From Terriglobales bacterium (GTDB lineage: Bacteria > Acidobacteriota > Terriglobia > Terriglobales > Acidobacteriaceae): a stretch of 64,000 bases of DNA. The notes under the pieces are model-generated. The model saw only the letters and a program-made list of their open reading frames with translations. It searched no databases and had not been told where the DNA came from. A program made the translations under genes and the position numbers. The first letter of the stretch is position 1. The number at the start of each line of letters is the position of its first letter. The DNA lies in assembly GCA_041691575.1 (NCBI GenBank), contig JBEPUJ010000014.1, positions 24,238-88,237 on the forward strand. The letters are read 5' to 3'. This document shows, piece by piece, positions 32,049-39,177 of the stretch.

Positions 32049-32114
32049 TCGGGAGATTCCTAGGCAGCCCGGATCGAGAATTTGCCGGCCAGATGGACTG
32101 AAGAAAGGGAAACG

Positions 32115-33812
32115 ATGGCTGATTCCGTATCGAGCCTTCCAGCACTGGAAGCGATCGACCCGACGGCGGAACAAAGTTCGCGGCGGTTATTCTTCGAGGT
32201 GCTGCACGACTGGGTGACGACGGTCGATCACAAAAAGATCGGCCTGATGTATATCGGCTACGCTCTGCTTTTTATGGTGGCGGGCGGCATAGAAGCGCTC
32301 ATCATGCGGATCCAGCTTGCGGTGCCGCATAACCACTTCGTCTCCCCCGAGGTCTTCAACCGGATGTTCACCATGCATGGGACCACGATGGTCTTCTTCA
32401 TGGGTATGCCCATCCTGTTTGGATTTGGAAACTACCTCATCCCCTTGATGATCGGCGCGCGCGACATGGCGTTTCCGCGCTTGAATGCGTTCAGCTTCTG
32501 GATCTCCGCGCTGGGCGGGCTGTTGCTGTATTACAGCTTCATCGGCGGATCAGGGCTTTATGGAGCGGGCAGCGCGCCGGATGTAGGCTGGTTCGCCTAT
32601 GCTCCGCTGACGGCCAAGGCCTTCTCGCCGGGACACAGCACGGACTACTGGACGATCAGCATTCTGCTAAGCGGGATCGGCAGCATCGGCACCGCGCTCA
32701 ATATCGTCGCTACGATTATTTCGATGCGCTGCCCGGGCATGAAGCTCAGCCGGATGCCGCTGCTGGCGTGGCTCTATTTAGTGCTGTCGAATATGGTCTT
32801 CATCACCGTCAGCCCGTTGACGGCGGCGCAGATCATGCTGATGCTCGATCGCTACGCTGGTTCGCATTTCTTTGATACGCAGGCTGGCGGCTCCGCTGTG
32901 CTCTGGATTCACTTCTTCTGGATCTTCGGACATCCTGAGGTCTATATCCTGGTGATGCCGGCGTTCGCGTTCATGAATGAGATCATTCCGGTCTTTTCGC
33001 GCAAGGCGATCTTCGGCTATCCGGCTATGGTGGCGGCATCGGTTGGCATCGGCTTCGTCAGTATGAGCGTCTGGGCTCACCACATGTTTACTGTCGGCAT
33101 GGGCGCGGGAGCTAATGTCTTCTTCGTCCTGTCGAGCATGGTCGTCGCGATACCGACCGGCATCAAGATCTTCAACTGGCTGGCCACGATATGGGGCGGC
33201 AAAGTGCGCTTTGCTTCTCCAATGTTGTTCAGCGTCGGCTTCCTGTTCCAGTTCCTGATTGCCGGACTCACCGGCATTATGCTTGCCGCCGCGCCGTTCG
33301 ACTGGCAACTGAACAACTCCTATTTTGTGGTCGCTCACTTCCATTACGTTCTGGTCGGCGGAATTCTCTTCGCCTTCTTCGCCGCATTCTATTACTGGTA
33401 CCCGAAGGTGACCGGCCGGATGATGAATGAGCGGCTCGCCAAATGGCACTTCTGGCTGATGGTGTTCGGGTTCCACATGACGTTCGACTTCATGCACATC
33501 CCTGGTTTGCTCGGGATGCCTCGCAGGGTCTACACCTACGAACCCCGGCCCGGATGGGAGATTCTGAACCTGATTGTGAGCATTGGCGCGATCTTCCAGG
33601 CCATTGCCGTCCTCCTGTTCGTGATCAACCTGATCCGGTCGAATTACAAGGGAGATATCGCAGGCAACGATCCCTGGGATGCGTGGACGCTCGAATGGTC
33701 TACCGCTTCGCCACCCCCGGTCTACAACTTTGCCTCCACCCCGGTTGTGTACAGCCGCCGCCCGCTGTGGGACATCAAGCATCCGGAAGACCCCGACTGG
33801 AACTACGAATGA
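32115..33812 (+). CDS. ctaD: Heme-copper oxidase subunit I, A1 type
   Basis: TMHG, ARDMAFPRLN, GHPEVY, WAHHM, PTGIK, AHFHY, GMPRR. Confidence 0.97.
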   Translation: MADSVSSLPALEAIDPTAEQSSRRLFFEVLHDWVTTVDHKKIGLMYIGYALLFMVAGGIEALIMRIQLAVPHNHFVSPEVFNRMFTMHGTTMVFFMGMPILFGFGNYLIPLMIGARDMAFPRLNAFSFWISALGGLLLYYSFIGGSGLYGAGSAPDVGWFAYAPLTAKAFSPGHSTDYWTISILLSGIGSIGTALNIVATIISMRCPGMKLSRMPLLAWLYLVLSNMVFITVSPLTAAQIMLMLDRYAGSHFFDTQAGGSAVLWIHFFWIFGHPEVYILVMPAFAFMNEIIPVFSRKAIFGYPAMVAASVGIGFVSMSVWAHHMFTVGMGAGANVFFVLSSMVVAIPTGIKIFNWLATIWGGKVRFASPMLFSVGFLFQFLIAGLTGIMLAAAPFDWQLNNSYFVVAHFHYVLVGGILFAFFAAFYYWYPKVTGRMMNERLAKWHFWLMVFGFHMTFDFMHIPGLLGMPRRVYTYEPRPGWEILNLIVSIGAIFQAIAVLLFVINLIRSNYKGDIAGNDPWDAWTLEWSTASPPPVYNFASTPVVYSRRPLWDIKHPEDPDWNYE

Positions 33813-33822
33813 GAGAGTATCG

Positions 33823-34419
33823 ATGAGCACGATTCCCATCACTCCCGATGTAGCCGAAGAGCCCTGGGTCCTGCCGGATCGAGGCACCGTCGGCATGGTC
33901 TGCCTGATCGTTGCCGAGTCCGCGATCTTCCTCATCTTCGTCGTCGCCTACATCTTTTACATGGGGCAGAGCCTGGGCGGGCCAACGCCGCAGCAGGTCC
34001 TCCAGTTGCCGATCTTCATCACGGTCTGCCTGTTGTCGAGCAGCCTGACGCTCCACTGGGCGGTCGCGGCGCTGCGTAAAAGCAAGATCGGGGCCTGCGC
34101 CGCGTGGCTTGCGGCTACCGTCGCGCTGGGCACTATCTTCCTCGTCGGAACGGGTATGGAGTGGCACCACCTTATCTATGTCGACGGTCTTTCGATTCGC
34201 ACCAATCTTTTTGGCACCACATTTTATTCGCTGATCGGTCTGCATGCGACCCATGTGGTCGTCGGTCTGGCGATGCTTTTGATGGCGCTCGTCTTTGCCC
34301 TGACCGGCCATGTGAAGGAAGAACATGCGCATCGTCTGGACGTGCTTGCGCTCTATTGGCACTTCGTTGATGCGGTGTGGGTTGTTGTATTCACGGTTGT
34401 CTATGTGCTCGGACGATGA
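33823..34419 (+). CDS. ctaE: Cytochrome c oxidase subunit III, short 5-TM form
   Basis: GMVCLIVAE, FGTTFYSLIGLHATHV, LYWHFVDAVW. Confidence 0.92.
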   Translation: MSTIPITPDVAEEPWVLPDRGTVGMVCLIVAESAIFLIFVVAYIFYMGQSLGGPTPQQVLQLPIFITVCLLSSSLTLHWAVAALRKSKIGACAAWLAATVALGTIFLVGTGMEWHHLIYVDGLSIRTNLFGTTFYSLIGLHATHVVVGLAMLLMALVFALTGHVKEEHAHRLDVLALYWHFVDAVWVVVFTVVYVLGR

Positions 34420-34458
34420 GAGCTTTGCAAATTTTGAGGGATGCTCGAAAGGGATTCG

Positions 34459-35313
34459 ATGTCAGTCGCTGAATCAGAACACGGACAAGAGCGTACAGGC
34501 GTAGTGGTGTTGCCGACACCGACCGCGTGGCCGCTGGTGCTCTCGCTTGGCATTACGCTGCTGCTGGCGGGGCTGCTGACGCATTGGTTTATCAGCGTCC
34601 TCGGCCTGGCGTTGATGGTCCCGTCCTCGATTGGATGGTTTCGCCAGGTGCTGCCGCACGAGCAGCATGAGTCGGTGCCCGTTCGCATCAAGGTGGAGAC
34701 CATCACGACGCGGCGCATCAACGTGGTCAGAATTCCCCTCGACGAGAACCATCGAAAAGTTCTGCCCTACGAGACCTACACCATAATGGCCGGAGTCAAG
34801 GGCGGCCTCGTCGGCGGTATTGCGATGATCGTACCGGCGACGCTCTTTAGCCTCATTCGATATCACAGCCTCTGGTACTCCGCGAATTTGCTGGCTGCTG
34901 GCGGCTTTGTGGACTGGGCGAATGCGAGCGACGCCTTCCTGTCGAGCTTTCATATGGAGGGACTGCTCGCCGCAGCGGCCATCCATATCGTCACCTCGCT
35001 GCTGGTGGGGCTGCTTTATGGAGCCATGCTTCCGATGTTTCCCTGGAAGCCGATCTTGACCGCCGGCTTTGTCGCTCCGTTTCTCTGGACAGGAATTCTT
35101 TACAGCGCGCTGGGCGTCATCAGCCCGATTCTGGATCAGCGCATCGACTGGCTCTGGTTCATCGTCTCGCAGATTGCATTCGGCCTGGTCTGCGGCTTTG
35201 TCGTGAACCTGCAGGTAAGGGTGCGAACCGCGCAATTCCGCTCGTTGCCATTTACCGTTCGCGCGGGAATCGAAGGTGCCCACAAGAAGGGCGAGAACGA
35301 GGAGGACGAATAG
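34459..35313 (+). CDS. Membrane protein: CtaF/subunit IV-like N-terminus fused to an extra multi-TM domain
   Basis: PTPTAWPLVLSLG...GWFRQVL resembles COX3 helices I-II; five to six further hydrophobic segments. Confidence 0.55.
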   Translation: MSVAESEHGQERTGVVVLPTPTAWPLVLSLGITLLLAGLLTHWFISVLGLALMVPSSIGWFRQVLPHEQHESVPVRIKVETITTRRINVVRIPLDENHRKVLPYETYTIMAGVKGGLVGGIAMIVPATLFSLIRYHSLWYSANLLAAGGFVDWANASDAFLSSFHMEGLLAAAAIHIVTSLLVGLLYGAMLPMFPWKPILTAGFVAPFLWTGILYSALGVISPILDQRIDWLWFIVSQIAFGLVCGFVVNLQVRVRTAQFRSLPFTVRAGIEGAHKKGENEEDE

Positions 35314-36080
35314 TGAGAATGTCCTCCGTCCTCTCTCTCCTTGCTGCCTCTCTTTTGTGTGCGGCGACCTTTGGCTGTAACAGCGCGCCGGGACGTCCCA
35401 AGGCTGGCCCCGAAGTTTTGCGTCCCGACGAGGTGCAGGATTTCGCCACGCTCTACAAACAGAATTGCGCTGCCTGCCACGGAGAAAATGGCAGGCAGGG
35501 TGCAGCCGCCTCTCTGGCCAATCCTGAATATCTGGCATTGGCAGGAGAAAATTCGCTGCTCCAGGTTACGTCGTTAGGCGTGCCCGGCACGCTGATGCCC
35601 GCGTTTGCGCAGAGCGCGGGAGGCATGCTCACCGACCGCCAGATCCATAGCCTGGTAGACGGCATGATGAAGCAGTGGGGAAAGGCTGACGCTCTGGCCG
35701 GACAGAATCCTCCGCCATACGCAGCGGCAACCGCAGGAGACGCCCAACAGGGGCAGCAGGTCTTCGCAACGTATTGCGCCCGCTGCCATGGCGCCGACGG
35801 CAAGGGCGCGACGGCCAGAGATGCAGGCGCAAAGACTGAGCGCAAACTTGGGTCGATCGTCGATCCTTCCTATCTCGCGCTGGTCAGCAACCAGAGTTTA
35901 CGAACGATGACGATTGTCGGCATTCCGGATGAAGGGATGCCGGACTGGCGCGGAGATCTTCTCTCGCACCCCATGACCGACAAGGAAGTTACGGATGTAG
36001 TGGCATGGCTGGCCTCCCAGCGGTCGCCTTATCCCGGCCAACCTTACCCCACAGCGCCTGCAGCCCAGCGCCCGCACTAA
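35313..36080 (+). CDS. Diheme cytochrome c lipoprotein (QcrC-like)
   Basis: Lipobox TFGC; CAACH and CARCH; distal Met candidates (LMPAF, GMPDW). Confidence 0.88.
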   Translation: MRMSSVLSLLAASLLCAATFGCNSAPGRPKAGPEVLRPDEVQDFATLYKQNCAACHGENGRQGAAASLANPEYLALAGENSLLQVTSLGVPGTLMPAFAQSAGGMLTDRQIHSLVDGMMKQWGKADALAGQNPPPYAAATAGDAQQGQQVFATYCARCHGADGKGATARDAGAKTERKLGSIVDPSYLALVSNQSLRTMTIVGIPDEGMPDWRGDLLSHPMTDKEVTDVVAWLASQRSPYPGQPYPTAPAAQRPH

Positions 36081-36100
36081 CCGGCAAGACGGAGACACTG

Positions 36101-36760
36101 ATGAGCGAACACGAGAGCGAGCACCTGACCGGCGATCCGAGACCGGAAGAAAATAAATTGCAGAGTGAGGCACGGCCTGTATCCAACTCTAAGAATGATC
36201 CTAAAGACCATTCCCGTCGTGTCTTCCTGTTCAAGGTCTCTTTGTTGATCAATGGGGCGGTGGGCGTGGTGCTTGCCGTTCCCGTTCTCGGATATCTGCT
36301 GGGGCCGGTGATCCAGAAGAAGAATGGCTACCACTCCTGGATCACGCTGGGCAACGTGAACGATTTTCCGGAAGGCGAGACGCGGCTGGCCAACTATCGT
36401 AATCCATCCACCACGCAGTGGGACGGCCAGACGGGCGACATTCCGTGCTGGGTTCGCCGCGTATCGGGCAATCAGTTTCAGGTCTTCGCCATCAATTGCG
36501 CCCACCTCGGCTGTCCGGTCCGATGGTTCTCTGAGTCGAAGCTCTTCCTCTGCCCCTGCCATGGCGGCGCGTACTACGAAGATGGCGAGCGCGCTGCAGG
36601 GCCGCCCGAGCGTGGTCTCTTCGAATACAAGTACAGGGTCGCGGGAGCCAAGCTGATGATCAATGCTGGTGAGATGCCGACGCTCTCAACCCCGGCCAGC
36701 TCGCCGAGCGCCAACTTTGTACCACTGGAAAAAATAGGGTGTGGATCATGCAAGAGCTAA
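36101..36760 (+). CDS. qcrA: Rieske iron-sulfur subunit of a bc complex
   Basis: SRRVFL Tat motif, TM anchor, CAHLGC and CPCHGGAY. Confidence 0.92.
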   Translation: MSEHESEHLTGDPRPEENKLQSEARPVSNSKNDPKDHSRRVFLFKVSLLINGAVGVVLAVPVLGYLLGPVIQKKNGYHSWITLGNVNDFPEGETRLANYRNPSTTQWDGQTGDIPCWVRRVSGNQFQVFAINCAHLGCPVRWFSESKLFLCPCHGGAYYEDGERAAGPPERGLFEYKYRVAGAKLMINAGEMPTLSTPASSPSANFVPLEKIGCGSCKS

Positions 36761-38316
36761 AGAAGTCCGGTCTGCGAAAACTCGGCATGGGAGTGTACGA
36801 CTGGTTCGAGTATCGTCTCGGCCTCGGCAAACCGGCGATGGACGCGGCGGCGCATCCCGTTCCGGCCAGCAGCGCAAGCTGGTGGTATGTTTTTGGCAGC
36901 GCCGCGACGGTGCTGTTCGCATTGCAGATCATGACCGGCGTTCTGCTTGCGCTGGTTTACACACCGTCCGCAAGTGAGGCGTGGAACAGCCTCCAGTTCC
37001 TCAACGACAAGGTTGCGCTGGGCTGGTTCCTGCGCGCATTGCATGGATGGGGCTCGGACTTCATGGTCGCCATCGTGCTCATCCACATGATGCAGGTCTT
37101 CATGTTCGGTGCGTACAAGTTTCCCCGCGAACTGACCTGGATTATCGGAGTGTTTCTTCTGCTCCTGACCCTGGGCATGGCCTTCACCGGACAGGTGCTG
37201 CGCTTCGATCAGGACGCCTACTGGGGCCTCGGCATCGGCGCTTCGATTGCGAGCCGCGTGCCTCTTATTGGCGCGCCTCTGGTTCATCTGATGCTCGGCG
37301 CACCCATCATTGGCAGCGCTACGCTCTCACGCTTCTTTACCCTTCATGTCTTTGTTATCCCCGGCATCCTGCTGGCTGGTATCGCGCTTCATCTTTTGAT
37401 GGTGCTACGGCTTGGAATCAATGAGTGGCCCATGCCCGGGCGCGTCGTTCGCAAGAGCACCTACGAGGCGGAGTATCACAAGCTCACCGAAAAAGAGGGC
37501 ATTGCCTTTGTGCCCGATGGCGCATGGAAGGATGCCATCTTCGCCGCCGCCATTGTGCTGGCGGTAATGGCATGCGCCTTCTTCTTCGGCCCGTTCGGCC
37601 CCACCGGCCAGCCCGATCCTACGATCATCCAGACAGCGCCGAAGCCGGACCCTGCGTTCCTCTGGATCTTCGCCGTGCTCTCCCTTCTGCCGGCCAGCCT
37701 GGAGACGCCGATCATCCTGATCGCGCCCGTAATCATTATCGGAGCCATGCTGTTGCTGCCGCTGGTCGCGGGCGAAGGTGAAAAACACTGGGCCCGCCGT
37801 CCGCTCGCTGTGTTGATGGTCACGGTCATCGCGGTCTCTCTCGGCATCTTTACCCGGCTGGGAATCACCACTCCGTGGAGCCCGGTGATGAATGCGTGGT
37901 CCAGCGACATCATTCCTCCGAAACTCCTTCATGAAGCCACGCCGCTTGAACGGCAGGGCGCGCTCGTCTTCCAGAACAAGCAGTGCCGCAACTGCCACGA
38001 GGTTGCCGGGCAGGGCGGACAGAGAGGCCCCGATCTCGATTCTGTGGCGACACGCCTGACCGAAGACCAGATGGTGCGCCAGGTATTGCAGGGCGGCGGA
38101 AATATGCCCGCCTATGGCAATGCCCTCAGCCCGTCGCAGACCACGGCGCTGGTTGCCTTTCTCAAGACTCTGCGCGGCAATGACCTGAGACCCGCGCAGG
38201 ATGCCTCCCGCGCTCTCGGCAATATCAATCCTCCGGAATCAACCAGGCCCGGCGAGCAGATTCCTTCAGGTCAATCGCACCTGTCGAAGGAATCGCCTGC
38301 TTCGGGGAAGCCATAG
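36748..38316 (+). CDS. qcrB: Cytochrome b (b6 plus subunit IV fused) with C-terminal cytochrome c
   Basis: LHGW/LIHM and TLHV/ALHL heme pairs, DQDAYWG, CRNCH; start 36739 or 36748. Confidence 0.92.
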   Translation: MQELKKSGLRKLGMGVYDWFEYRLGLGKPAMDAAAHPVPASSASWWYVFGSAATVLFALQIMTGVLLALVYTPSASEAWNSLQFLNDKVALGWFLRALHGWGSDFMVAIVLIHMMQVFMFGAYKFPRELTWIIGVFLLLLTLGMAFTGQVLRFDQDAYWGLGIGASIASRVPLIGAPLVHLMLGAPIIGSATLSRFFTLHVFVIPGILLAGIALHLLMVLRLGINEWPMPGRVVRKSTYEAEYHKLTEKEGIAFVPDGAWKDAIFAAAIVLAVMACAFFFGPFGPTGQPDPTIIQTAPKPDPAFLWIFAVLSLLPASLETPIILIAPVIIIGAMLLLPLVAGEGEKHWARRPLAVLMVTVIAVSLGIFTRLGITTPWSPVMNAWSSDIIPPKLLHEATPLERQGALVFQNKQCRNCHEVAGQGGQRGPDLDSVATRLTEDQMVRQVLQGGGNMPAYGNALSPSQTTALVAFLKTLRGNDLRPAQDASRALGNINPPESTRPGEQIPSGQSHLSKESPASGKP

Positions 38317-38328
38317 AAATGCCGTTGT

Positions 38329-39177
38329 ATGGCCGCTGATATCCAATCAACCATCGCTTCGTGGCAGCCGTCTTACTGGCTCTCCGCTTCGGTGCTGCTC
38401 AGCTCGGCAGTGTACTGCCGGGGATGGCTGGCGATCCGAAAGACGAGGCCCGCGCAATTCCCCCTGTGGCGGCTGAATACCTTTCTGCTGGCCATGACGA
38501 TTTTGTGGCTGGCGATCGGCTCCCCGCTGGACGCATTTGCGGATGTGACGCTGTCCGCGCACATGGTCGAGCACCTGCTGCTCATGTCGGTTGTGCCGCC
38601 GCTGGTCTGGCTGTCCAATCCAACTGTCCCCATGCTGCGCGGACTGCCTCGCTGGCTGGTGAAGCGCGTGCTTGGCCCACTCATCCGCATCCGGCGGCTG
38701 CGGCAGTTCAGCCATTGGCTCATCCGCCCGCGCATCGCCTGGATCGTGCTGAACGTCATCTTTCTGGGATGGCATGTCCCTGCCGCCTATGACTTTGCCC
38801 TGACGTACGAAGGGTGGCACATCGTCGAGCACATGTGTTTTCTCTTTGCGTCTCTGCTCTTCTGGTGGCCGATCATTCGTCCATGGCCTACCGGCGGACG
38901 TGTCTATACCTGGGGGCTGATCCTGTATCTCCTCTCAGCGGACGTCGTCAACACCGCGCTCTCCGCGTTCCTCGCCTTCTGCACCCGGCCGATGTATCCG
39001 TTCTACCTGACGCAGCCGAATCCGTTTGGGCTTTCGCCGCTTGCCGATCAGGTGATCGGAGCGGTCATCATGTGGGTCTTCGGCTCTATCGTCTTCCTGA
39101 TTCCCGCCATCTTCATCACGCTCAGGCTGCTCCAGCCTGAGCAGCTTCGCGTCCCCGACAGGGAATATGGCGTCTGA
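38329..39177 (+). CDS. ctaG: caa3-type oxidase assembly factor CtaG
   Basis: SAHMVEHLLL, GWHVPAAYD, HIVEH, DQVIGAVIMW. Confidence 0.9.
   Translation: MAADIQSTIASWQPSYWLSASVLLSSAVYCRGWLAIRKTRPAQFPLWRLNTFLLAMTILWLAIGSPLDAFADVTLSAHMVEHLLLMSVVPPLVWLSNPTVPMLRGLPRWLVKRVLGPLIRIRRLRQFSHWLIRPRIAWIVLNVIFLGWHVPAAYDFALTYEGWHIVEHMCFLFASLLFWWPIIRPWPTGGRVYTWGLILYLLSADVVNTALSAFLAFCTRPMYPFYLTQPNPFGLSPLADQVIGAVIMWVFGSIVFLIPAIFITLRLLQPEQLRVPDREYGV

Follow-up and report, generated by a model that had tools for sequence, protein, structure and literature searches.

Textbooks identify the quinol-oxidation (Qo) site of complex III by the quartet PEWY, of which the tryptophan is the best-conserved residue. In a 64,000-nucleotide stretch of DNA from a soil-dwelling Terriglobales bacterium of the Acidobacteriaceae (GenBank assembly GCA_041691575.1, contig JBEPUJ010000014.1, positions 24,238 to 88,237 of the forward strand; hereafter the window, to which all positions below refer unless stated otherwise), an earlier note made from the DNA letters had read this quartet as PDPA in a predicted cytochrome b, and had offered an altered or non-bifurcating Qo site, a different quinol or a degenerating paralogue as explanations. 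The question raised by this locus is whether a cytochrome b without either aromatic residue of its Qo motif can belong to a working complex. Our comparisons of sequences indicate that PDPA is the tip of a stepwise, graded deviation that extends across the Terriglobales, and not the outcome of decay or of a sequencing error; we regard it as probable that the gene encodes part of a working, menaquinol-oxidising Rieske/cytochrome b Qo site in which two positions of the motif are unconstrained.

The observation itself was confirmed by alignment: PDPA is real and stands at the position of the Qo motif. Nucleotides 37645–37659 of the + strand read CCG GAC CCT GCG TTC and encode P303-D304-P305-A306-F307, with the motif proper, the counterpart of canonical PEWY, at 37645–37656 and the two codons that prove to be relaxed, 305 and 306, at 37651–37656. 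HMMER aligns 'kpdpaflw' with 'KPEWYFLF' of the bovine and ovine mitochondrial proteins without a gap; this piece alone is weak (E 0.02) and sits inside full-length cytochrome b matches with E values of 1e-30 to 1e-46. An alignment using MAFFT with distant fusions of cytochrome b and cytochrome c (PDWY, PDWF, PFWF) likewise puts PDPA, gapless, into the four columns of their motifs. One possibility raised in the earlier note was that the true motif, with canonical aromatics, lies elsewhere: homologues were aligned and their motifs tabulated, PDPA fell in the Qo columns, and the rest of the 525-residue protein contains nothing resembling P[E/D]W[Y/F]. P303 and D304 align with the P-E of the canonical motif and supply the proline of its first and the protonable residue of its second position, and both motif aromatics are missing as the note had read them, with P305 and A306 at positions 3 and 4. 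Because active, solved actinobacterial enzymes also lack the tryptophan, we consider aromatic residues at positions 3 and 4 to be a usual feature of such sites and not a defining one. A shifted register, in which F-L-W would represent a W-Y-F displaced by a two-residue insertion, was also considered and rejected, as the PDWY outgroups already read PDWY-F-L-W, with a tryptophan present at motif position 7.

How far the deviation extends can be seen from the relatives. In a homologue search covering 1.84 billion representatives, cytochrome b-c fusions at 31–45% identity read PEWY (31 sequences) or PDWY (17), whilst those at about 50–70% identity read PDFF, PDYF or PDFY; relatives reading PDWY are found no nearer than 40–46% identity. 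The motif tryptophan occurs in none of 80 named species-level genomes (Edaphobacter, Granulicella, Terracidiphilus, Terriglobus, Candidatus Sulfotelmatobacter, Candidatus Acidoferrum and other Terriglobales, including a few bins labelled otherwise): the major motifs in this sample are PDFF (30), PDYF (21), PDFA (14), PDVA (3), PDFP (3), PDAP (2) and PDFI (2), with PDYA, PDMP, PDAA, PDLP and PDFY seen once each. The 120 closest proteins (72–97% identity) are dominated by PDFA (90), followed by PDFF (10), PDAP (6), PDGP (4), PDFP (4) and five single variants, and the subclade of the window's protein (79–97% identity, two of its genomes belonging to the same genus) reads PDAA, PDAP, PDGP or PDPP, with an aromatic residue at neither position. 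The nearest outgroup genomes of a phylum-wide sample read PDFF at 56% identity and PDWY at 46%. Other, distant cytochrome b types of the Acidobacteriota (30–40% identity) all read P[E/D/P]WY, and this includes second copies within the same family: four such genomes (G091, G119, G166 and G291; loci L131 and L134–L136) hold a second, distant cytochrome b of 34–39% identity with PEWY-Y-L-P or similar. No distant PEWY-type paralogue of the kind carried by these other family members is present in the window's genome. In a published survey of 166 representatives, position 3 is tryptophan in 96% and position 4 is tyrosine in 84% or phenylalanine in 13% (PMC4122944, Table 1); the main text of that survey makes no mention of PDFA-like motifs, and our search of the full-text literature for PDFA, PDFF or PDYF in cytochrome b turned up only papers on the actinobacterial PDFY. 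Some further variation was observed in passing: distant fusions that keep the tryptophan sometimes lack the tyrosine alone (PEWN three times, PEWQ and PDWP once each), PDFY sequences have no tryptophan at motif position 7 (F-L-S or F-L-P), and sequences without tyrosine at position 4 nearly always retain it there.

By every test that the sequence makes available, the gene is alive and strongly conserved. It is the sole cytochrome b in a genome that is 99.5% complete, and no second, canonical cytochrome b was found in that genome. The nearest relative (L120), in which the same eight-gene operon is found, shows 97% amino acid and 93% nucleotide identity; the two genes differ at 91 codons synonymously and at 15 non-synonymously, giving a non-synonymous divergence (dN) of 0.013, a synonymous divergence (dS) of 0.29 and a dN/dS of 0.044. 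A degenerating paralogue can be rejected given this ratio and the absence of any other cytochrome b. The argument that four intact heme histidines speak against decay was upheld: H102 (37042–37044) and H116 (37084–37086) of helix B (together 37042–37086, + strand) and H203 (37345–37347) and H218 (37390–37392) of helix D (37345–37392, + strand) align with the ligands of cytochrome b6 and are invariant in relatives, providing the two bis-His heme b sites in a four-helix N-terminal domain that characterise the Rieske/cytochrome b family. Codon 305 is CCT in the window and GCA (Ala) in the nearest relative, so that Pro305 would be a private change from PDAA. As the window is the sole member of its close subclade with proline at position 3, one could suspect a sequencing or assembly error at this codon, the true residue being alanine as in the nearest relative. 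However, the two codons lie two bases apart, the codons around them display ordinary synonymous divergence, and proline at position 3 has arisen independently in other lineages (PDPA in P0043, PDPP in P0013); a single-base error is therefore unlikely, and the corrected motif, PDAA, would still be without both aromatics. We consider an error of this kind to be extremely improbable.

The motif is not the only part of the Qo site to have changed. In helix C, Gln152 (37192–37194, + strand) stands where the conserved Qo-site tyrosine of G-Y-x-L-P-W-(G/D)-Q is expected: the protein reads F-T-G-Q-V-L-R-F-D-Q, and in the match to the PDB 'aftGqvLrfDQ' aligns with 'GVTGYSLPWDQ' of cytochrome b6. We take this tyrosine to be Tyr131 of the bovine, Tyr132 of the yeast and Tyr153 of the Corynebacterium glutamicum protein. 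Gln152 is invariant in both clade alignments (A1 and A2), and the position is occupied by tyrosine in 28 of 31 PEWY relatives and by glutamine in 7 of the 14 that read PDWY and in almost every relative without the motif tryptophan. Since half of the PDWY-type relatives already carry it, the glutamine is probably older than the loss of that tryptophan. From this distribution among the sequences, the changes appear to have followed an order in which helix-C tyrosine was first exchanged for glutamine, with a tryptophan at motif position 7; the motif tryptophan then gave way to phenylalanine or tyrosine; the motif tyrosine became phenylalanine and later alanine or proline; and position 3 finally became alanine, glycine or proline. 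Close to Gln152, R155-F156 (37204–37209) replaces the P-W of P-W-(G/D)-Q, which is R-W in relatives at 37–58% identity, and this represents a second replacement of tryptophan by phenylalanine in the same lineage.

The pattern of substitution within the clade indicates that positions 3 and 4 are relaxed, being constrained to apolar residues alone. On a tree of 236 sequences built with the two motif columns left out, we counted at least 11 switches between aromatic and non-aromatic residues at position 3 and at least 12 at position 4. Residue changes numbered 29 at 305 and 28 at 306, compared to a median of 10 over 346 core columns, whilst the neighbouring residues changed hardly at all (P301 and P303, none; D304, one; F307, two; L308, five; W309, one). 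Parsimony counts over 110 codon sequences, a crude method with synonymous sites near saturation at this depth, gave 17 synonymous (S) and 25 non-synonymous (N) changes for codon 305 and 22 and 21 for codon 306, against core means of S 28.5 and N 9.9; N was zero at P301, P303, D304, F307 and W309 and one at L308. The resulting N/S of about 1.5 (305) and 1.0 (306), versus 0.35 gene-wide, therefore points to relaxed constraint and not to diversifying or positive selection. All residues seen are apolar: F, Y, A, G, V, P, L, M, I and W at position 3, and A, F, P, Y and I at position 4. With such variability at 305–306 and near-invariant neighbours, including the continuation F307-L308-W309 (37657–37665, + strand), the motif that is selected in this clade would be P-D-x-x-F-L-W.

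The same ordered losses can also be read as adaptive, with the Qo site having been re-engineered for a different binding mode or proton route of menaquinol, or for escape from the natural Qo inhibitors that soil myxobacteria and fungi produce. The changes are indeed nested and directional, running through the series PDWY, PDFF, PDFA and PD[AGP][AP] with Gln152 already in half of the PDWY relatives, and the organisms live in soil; the PEWY tyrosine can hydrogen-bond myxothiazol (PMC7908018), and helix-C Tyr153 of C. glutamicum hydrogen-bonds stigmatellin (PMC8795186). However, an N/S of 1.0–1.5 at codons 305/306, where neutrality would lie at about 2.5–3, fits relaxed and not diversifying selection, and the classical resistance positions F149 and G163 (F128 and G142 in the bovine protein) are invariant; furthermore, the many apolar residues accepted at both positions have the look of tolerance and not of design. 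No compensating change was found either in a scan of all columns from 20 to 399 over phylogenetically independent pairs: none of these columns followed the disappearance of the position-3 aromatic in more than about 4 pairs out of 10, with the Tyr/Phe switch at position 311 going the same way in 3.4 pairs, the opposite way in 0.2 and showing no difference in 6.4 (median p 0.25). We hold such re-engineering to be unlikely.

With regard to the substrate, the window's own genome (G000) contains two genes of the PF02621 (MqnA/MqnD) type (G000:C38:8930-9703 and C7:171062-171862), and MenA was not found in it, from which we conclude that menaquinone is made via the futalosine route. There was no match above the cut-off to proteobacterial-type UbiA in this genome; the best match to the UbiA family (C1:22430-23203, 132 bits, under the cut-off) may be the prenyltransferase of the futalosine pathway. 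The idea of a different quinol accordingly gains no support, as the genome appears to make menaquinone and nothing separates it from the PDFF and PDFA relatives. The genome also encodes alternative complex III (ActD) beside another COX1, together with several further heme-copper oxidases; cytochrome bd was not found in it. Of 36 high-quality genomes of the genus (G000 included), 35 contain ActD. The cytochrome b-c orthologue occurs in 19 of the 35 besides G000; of these 35, 12 have no cytochrome b of any type and 4 the distant type only; several closed genomes of the genus are without any cytochrome b. With ActD near-universal and the orthologue present in about half of the genus, the bc-caa3 branch is an accessory one. 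Two copies of the bc gene were seen in a few genomes of the genus (G002, G017 and G033).

This distribution, along with the alternative complex III that the genome itself holds next to another COX1, could be taken to mean that the complex of this subclade is impaired and heading for loss, with the branch of alternative complex III and caa3 oxidase carrying respiration and the bc genes persisting as relics. Such a course is at odds with the gene-wide dN/dS of 0.044, measured to a relative whose dS is 0.29, with the intact state of all cofactor ligands and with the retention of the eight-gene operon in the nearest relative; moreover, the non-aromatic motif is found throughout a subclade of 79–97% identity and must therefore have persisted for long under constraint. 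We judge the relic explanation to be very unlikely. In cultured Acidobacteriaceae, including strains of Edaphobacter, Terriglobus and Acidobacterium, the operon type known as the A1 caa3-bc1 superoperon has been described, and in strain KBS 83 it is transcribed, with the bc1 gene petC upregulated at nanomolar oxygen (PMC8407424).

Our preferred reading thus remains that of a working site with two relaxed positions, in which the complex would oxidise menaquinol and pass electrons via the tethered c hemes to the caa3 oxidase of the same operon. Together with the Rieske histidine, the chemistry would be carried by Pro303 of the motif, stacking on the quinol ring, and by Asp304, as the start of the proton exit path, whilst Gln152 probably joins them, likely in place of the helix-C tyrosine; these roles are proposed by analogy to the solved actinobacterial enzymes. 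The menaquinol-oxidising bcc complexes of Mycobacterium smegmatis (PDFY) and C. glutamicum (PDVY) are both solved and active (PMC8361435), and in the C. glutamicum structure the ring of stigmatellin stacks on the motif proline whilst the motif aspartate opens proton path Ex2, one of two exits (PMC8795186). As the proline and aspartate that play these parts are both invariant here, we infer that the PDPA site is catalytically competent. Residues 305 and 306 would belong to the opening turn of the ef helix, where proline or small residues would be tolerated, with packing supplied by the invariant F307, L308 and W309; Trp309, one helical turn downstream, could replace the canonical tryptophan as the anchor of this helix. 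PDPA would then be a tip variant that is neutral or close to it, separated from the PDAA of the nearest relative by a single private Ala-to-Pro change. No support was found for a non-bifurcating site, since none of the Rieske ligands, the two b hemes, the cytochrome c domain or the proline and aspartate of the motif has been lost. The description as an altered Qo site fits only in the weak sense of a stepwise property shared across the Terriglobales, with positions 3 and 4 relaxed to any apolar residue.

Several points weigh against this picture. The activity of every member of the clade is something that we infer, and the loss of both aromatics together with the helix-C tyrosine may change quinol binding more than the word 'neutral' implies; across cytochromes b, tryptophan at position 3 is conserved to 96% and tyrosine or phenylalanine at position 4 to 97% (PMC4122944). 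The AlphaFold2 model calculated from a 40-sequence alignment is of low confidence (mean predicted local distance difference test score 54.8, below 50 across residues 286–312), although a helix that starts at residue 305 in it gives a weak hint. Finally, about half of the genus lacks the gene yet keeps alternative complex III, so that the complex can be done without, and in some lineages the selection acting on it could be weak. A more far-reaching view, which we put forward only tentatively and regard as rather unlikely, is that the caa3-linked bc complexes of the Terriglobales possess a menaquinol Qo pocket without three hallmark residues (helix-C tyrosine, motif tryptophan and motif tyrosine), whose geometry is built on Pro303, Asp304, Gln152 and Trp309 and is unlike that of every solved bc1, b6f or bcc complex; if this were true, an altered sensitivity to natural Qo inhibitors would be possible.

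The protein that carries the motif is encoded by an open reading frame of 525 codons (36739–38316, + strand), in which a b6-like cytochrome b is fused to a subunit IV-like region and a C-terminal class I cytochrome c (PF00033, PF13631, PF13442, PF00034). PF00033 matches at 156.7 bits (cut-off 27.2) and PF13631 also matches, the subunit IV-like part being a three-helix region, and the class I cytochrome c domain (PF13442, PF00034) spans residues 405–478. Among solved structures, cytochrome b6 matches with an E value of 5e-46 and full-length cytochromes b with 1e-30 to 1e-39. The listed reading frame opens at GTG 36739, overlapping the Rieske gene; the real start is probably ATG 36748 (MQELKK), as in the nearest homologue (P0002/L120). 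Pfam matches and alignment identify C416-R-N-C419-H420 (CRNCH; 37984–37998, + strand) as the site at which heme c is attached to the fused domain, with M456 (38104–38106) the likely methionine ligand. The cysteine that binds heme ci in b6f and Bacillus-type b6 (CxGG) is not present: in the PDB alignment the protein reads SWWYVFGS against NIFYCLGG of b6.

The Rieske iron-sulfur subunit (36005–36760, + strand; PF00355) adjoins the cytochrome b gene and holds the CxH...CxxH cluster ligands, the cluster box CAHLGC...CPCHGGAY lying at 36497–36562 plus the following codons. Its start is probably 36101 (MSEHESE) and not 36005, and the orthologue in the nearest relative has 219 residues; the G-Y of its box marks the low-to-middle potential type in the scheme of Kao & Hunte (PMC4122944). 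Upstream lies the gene for a di-heme cytochrome c subunit (35313–36080, + strand; two PF13442/PF00034 stretches), which is also present in L120. It is preceded by those for caa3 oxidase subunit I (32082–33812, + strand; COX1 match) and subunit III (within 33679–34419, + strand; COX3 called in the syntenic L120). Between subunit III and the di-heme cytochrome c, 34441–35313 (+ strand) encodes a 290-residue membrane protein without a Pfam match, which is conserved in the corresponding position of the nearest relative (L120 3694–4566). A CtaG-type caa3 assembly factor (38329–39177, + strand; PF09678 at 190.9 bits) is the last gene of the operon. The string 32082–39177 thus has caa3 genes directly upstream of those for Rieske protein and cytochrome b, as in the superoperon type, and L120 carries the same eight genes (with calls for COX2, COX1, COX3, cytochrome c, Rieske, cytochrome b and CtaG).

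Comparison with known systems places these results in context. Cytochrome b6f (PetB/PetD) provides the best match to the N-terminal four helices (E 5e-46) and likewise has seven helices when subunit IV is counted; however, b6f consists of two separate proteins, has PEWY as its motif and binds heme ci on the cysteine of YCLGG, whereas the window's protein is a single chain with YVFGS, without the cysteine, and has a fused cytochrome c. The actinobacterial III2IV2 bcc complexes (M. smegmatis QcrB, PDFY; C. glutamicum QcrB, PDVY; PMC8361435, PMC8795186) resemble it in using menaquinol, in having aspartate at position 2 and no tryptophan at position 3, and in their linkage to an aa3-type oxidase with a di-heme cytochrome c, such that a soluble carrier is not needed. 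They differ in keeping the tyrosine of position 4 and helix-C Tyr153, where the window's protein has Ala306 and Gln152; in addition, their cytochrome b is an eight-helix protein that lacks the fused cytochrome c, and it is distant in sequence (E 1e-19 to 1e-21). In architecture the protein resembles the 'PDWY-cyt c' and 'PEWY-cyt c' clades (Kao & Hunte 2014, PMC4122944), in which an unsplit b6-like cytochrome b with subunit IV also bears a C-terminal class I cytochrome c; further features in common are aspartate at motif position 2, members from the Acidobacteria and the G-Y ('Mid-') Rieske box CPCHGGAY. The fused cytochrome c of the PDWY-cyt c clade is present here whilst its PDWY is replaced by PDPA, and from its sequence the gene is best placed as a derived branch of the PDWY-cyt c clade with an altered motif. 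All motif classes of that survey have tryptophan at position 3 and tyrosine or phenylalanine at position 4, unlike the Terriglobales branch, which is without the tryptophan, and its subclade without either aromatic.

These abundant soil bacteria present a natural mutagenesis experiment, in which the enzyme is under strong purifying selection whilst positions 3 and 4 drift among apolar residues, and this suggests that the proline, the acidic residue and the following F-L-W suffice in this scaffold, narrowing the role of the motif aromatics to packing rather than catalysis. With Edaphobacter, Granulicella and Terriglobus, the group also offers defined, culturable targets for structural work on a menaquinol Qo site that differs from the ones solved to date, and for annotation it follows that a missing PEWY should not be taken to mean a dead cytochrome b in Acidobacteriota. 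The A1 caa3-bc1 superoperon (Trojan et al. 2021, PMC8407424) has the same gene set and order as the operon found here, with genes for alternative complex III and caa3 oxidase elsewhere in the genome; that work differs in dealing with other strains and in not having the Qo motif as its subject.

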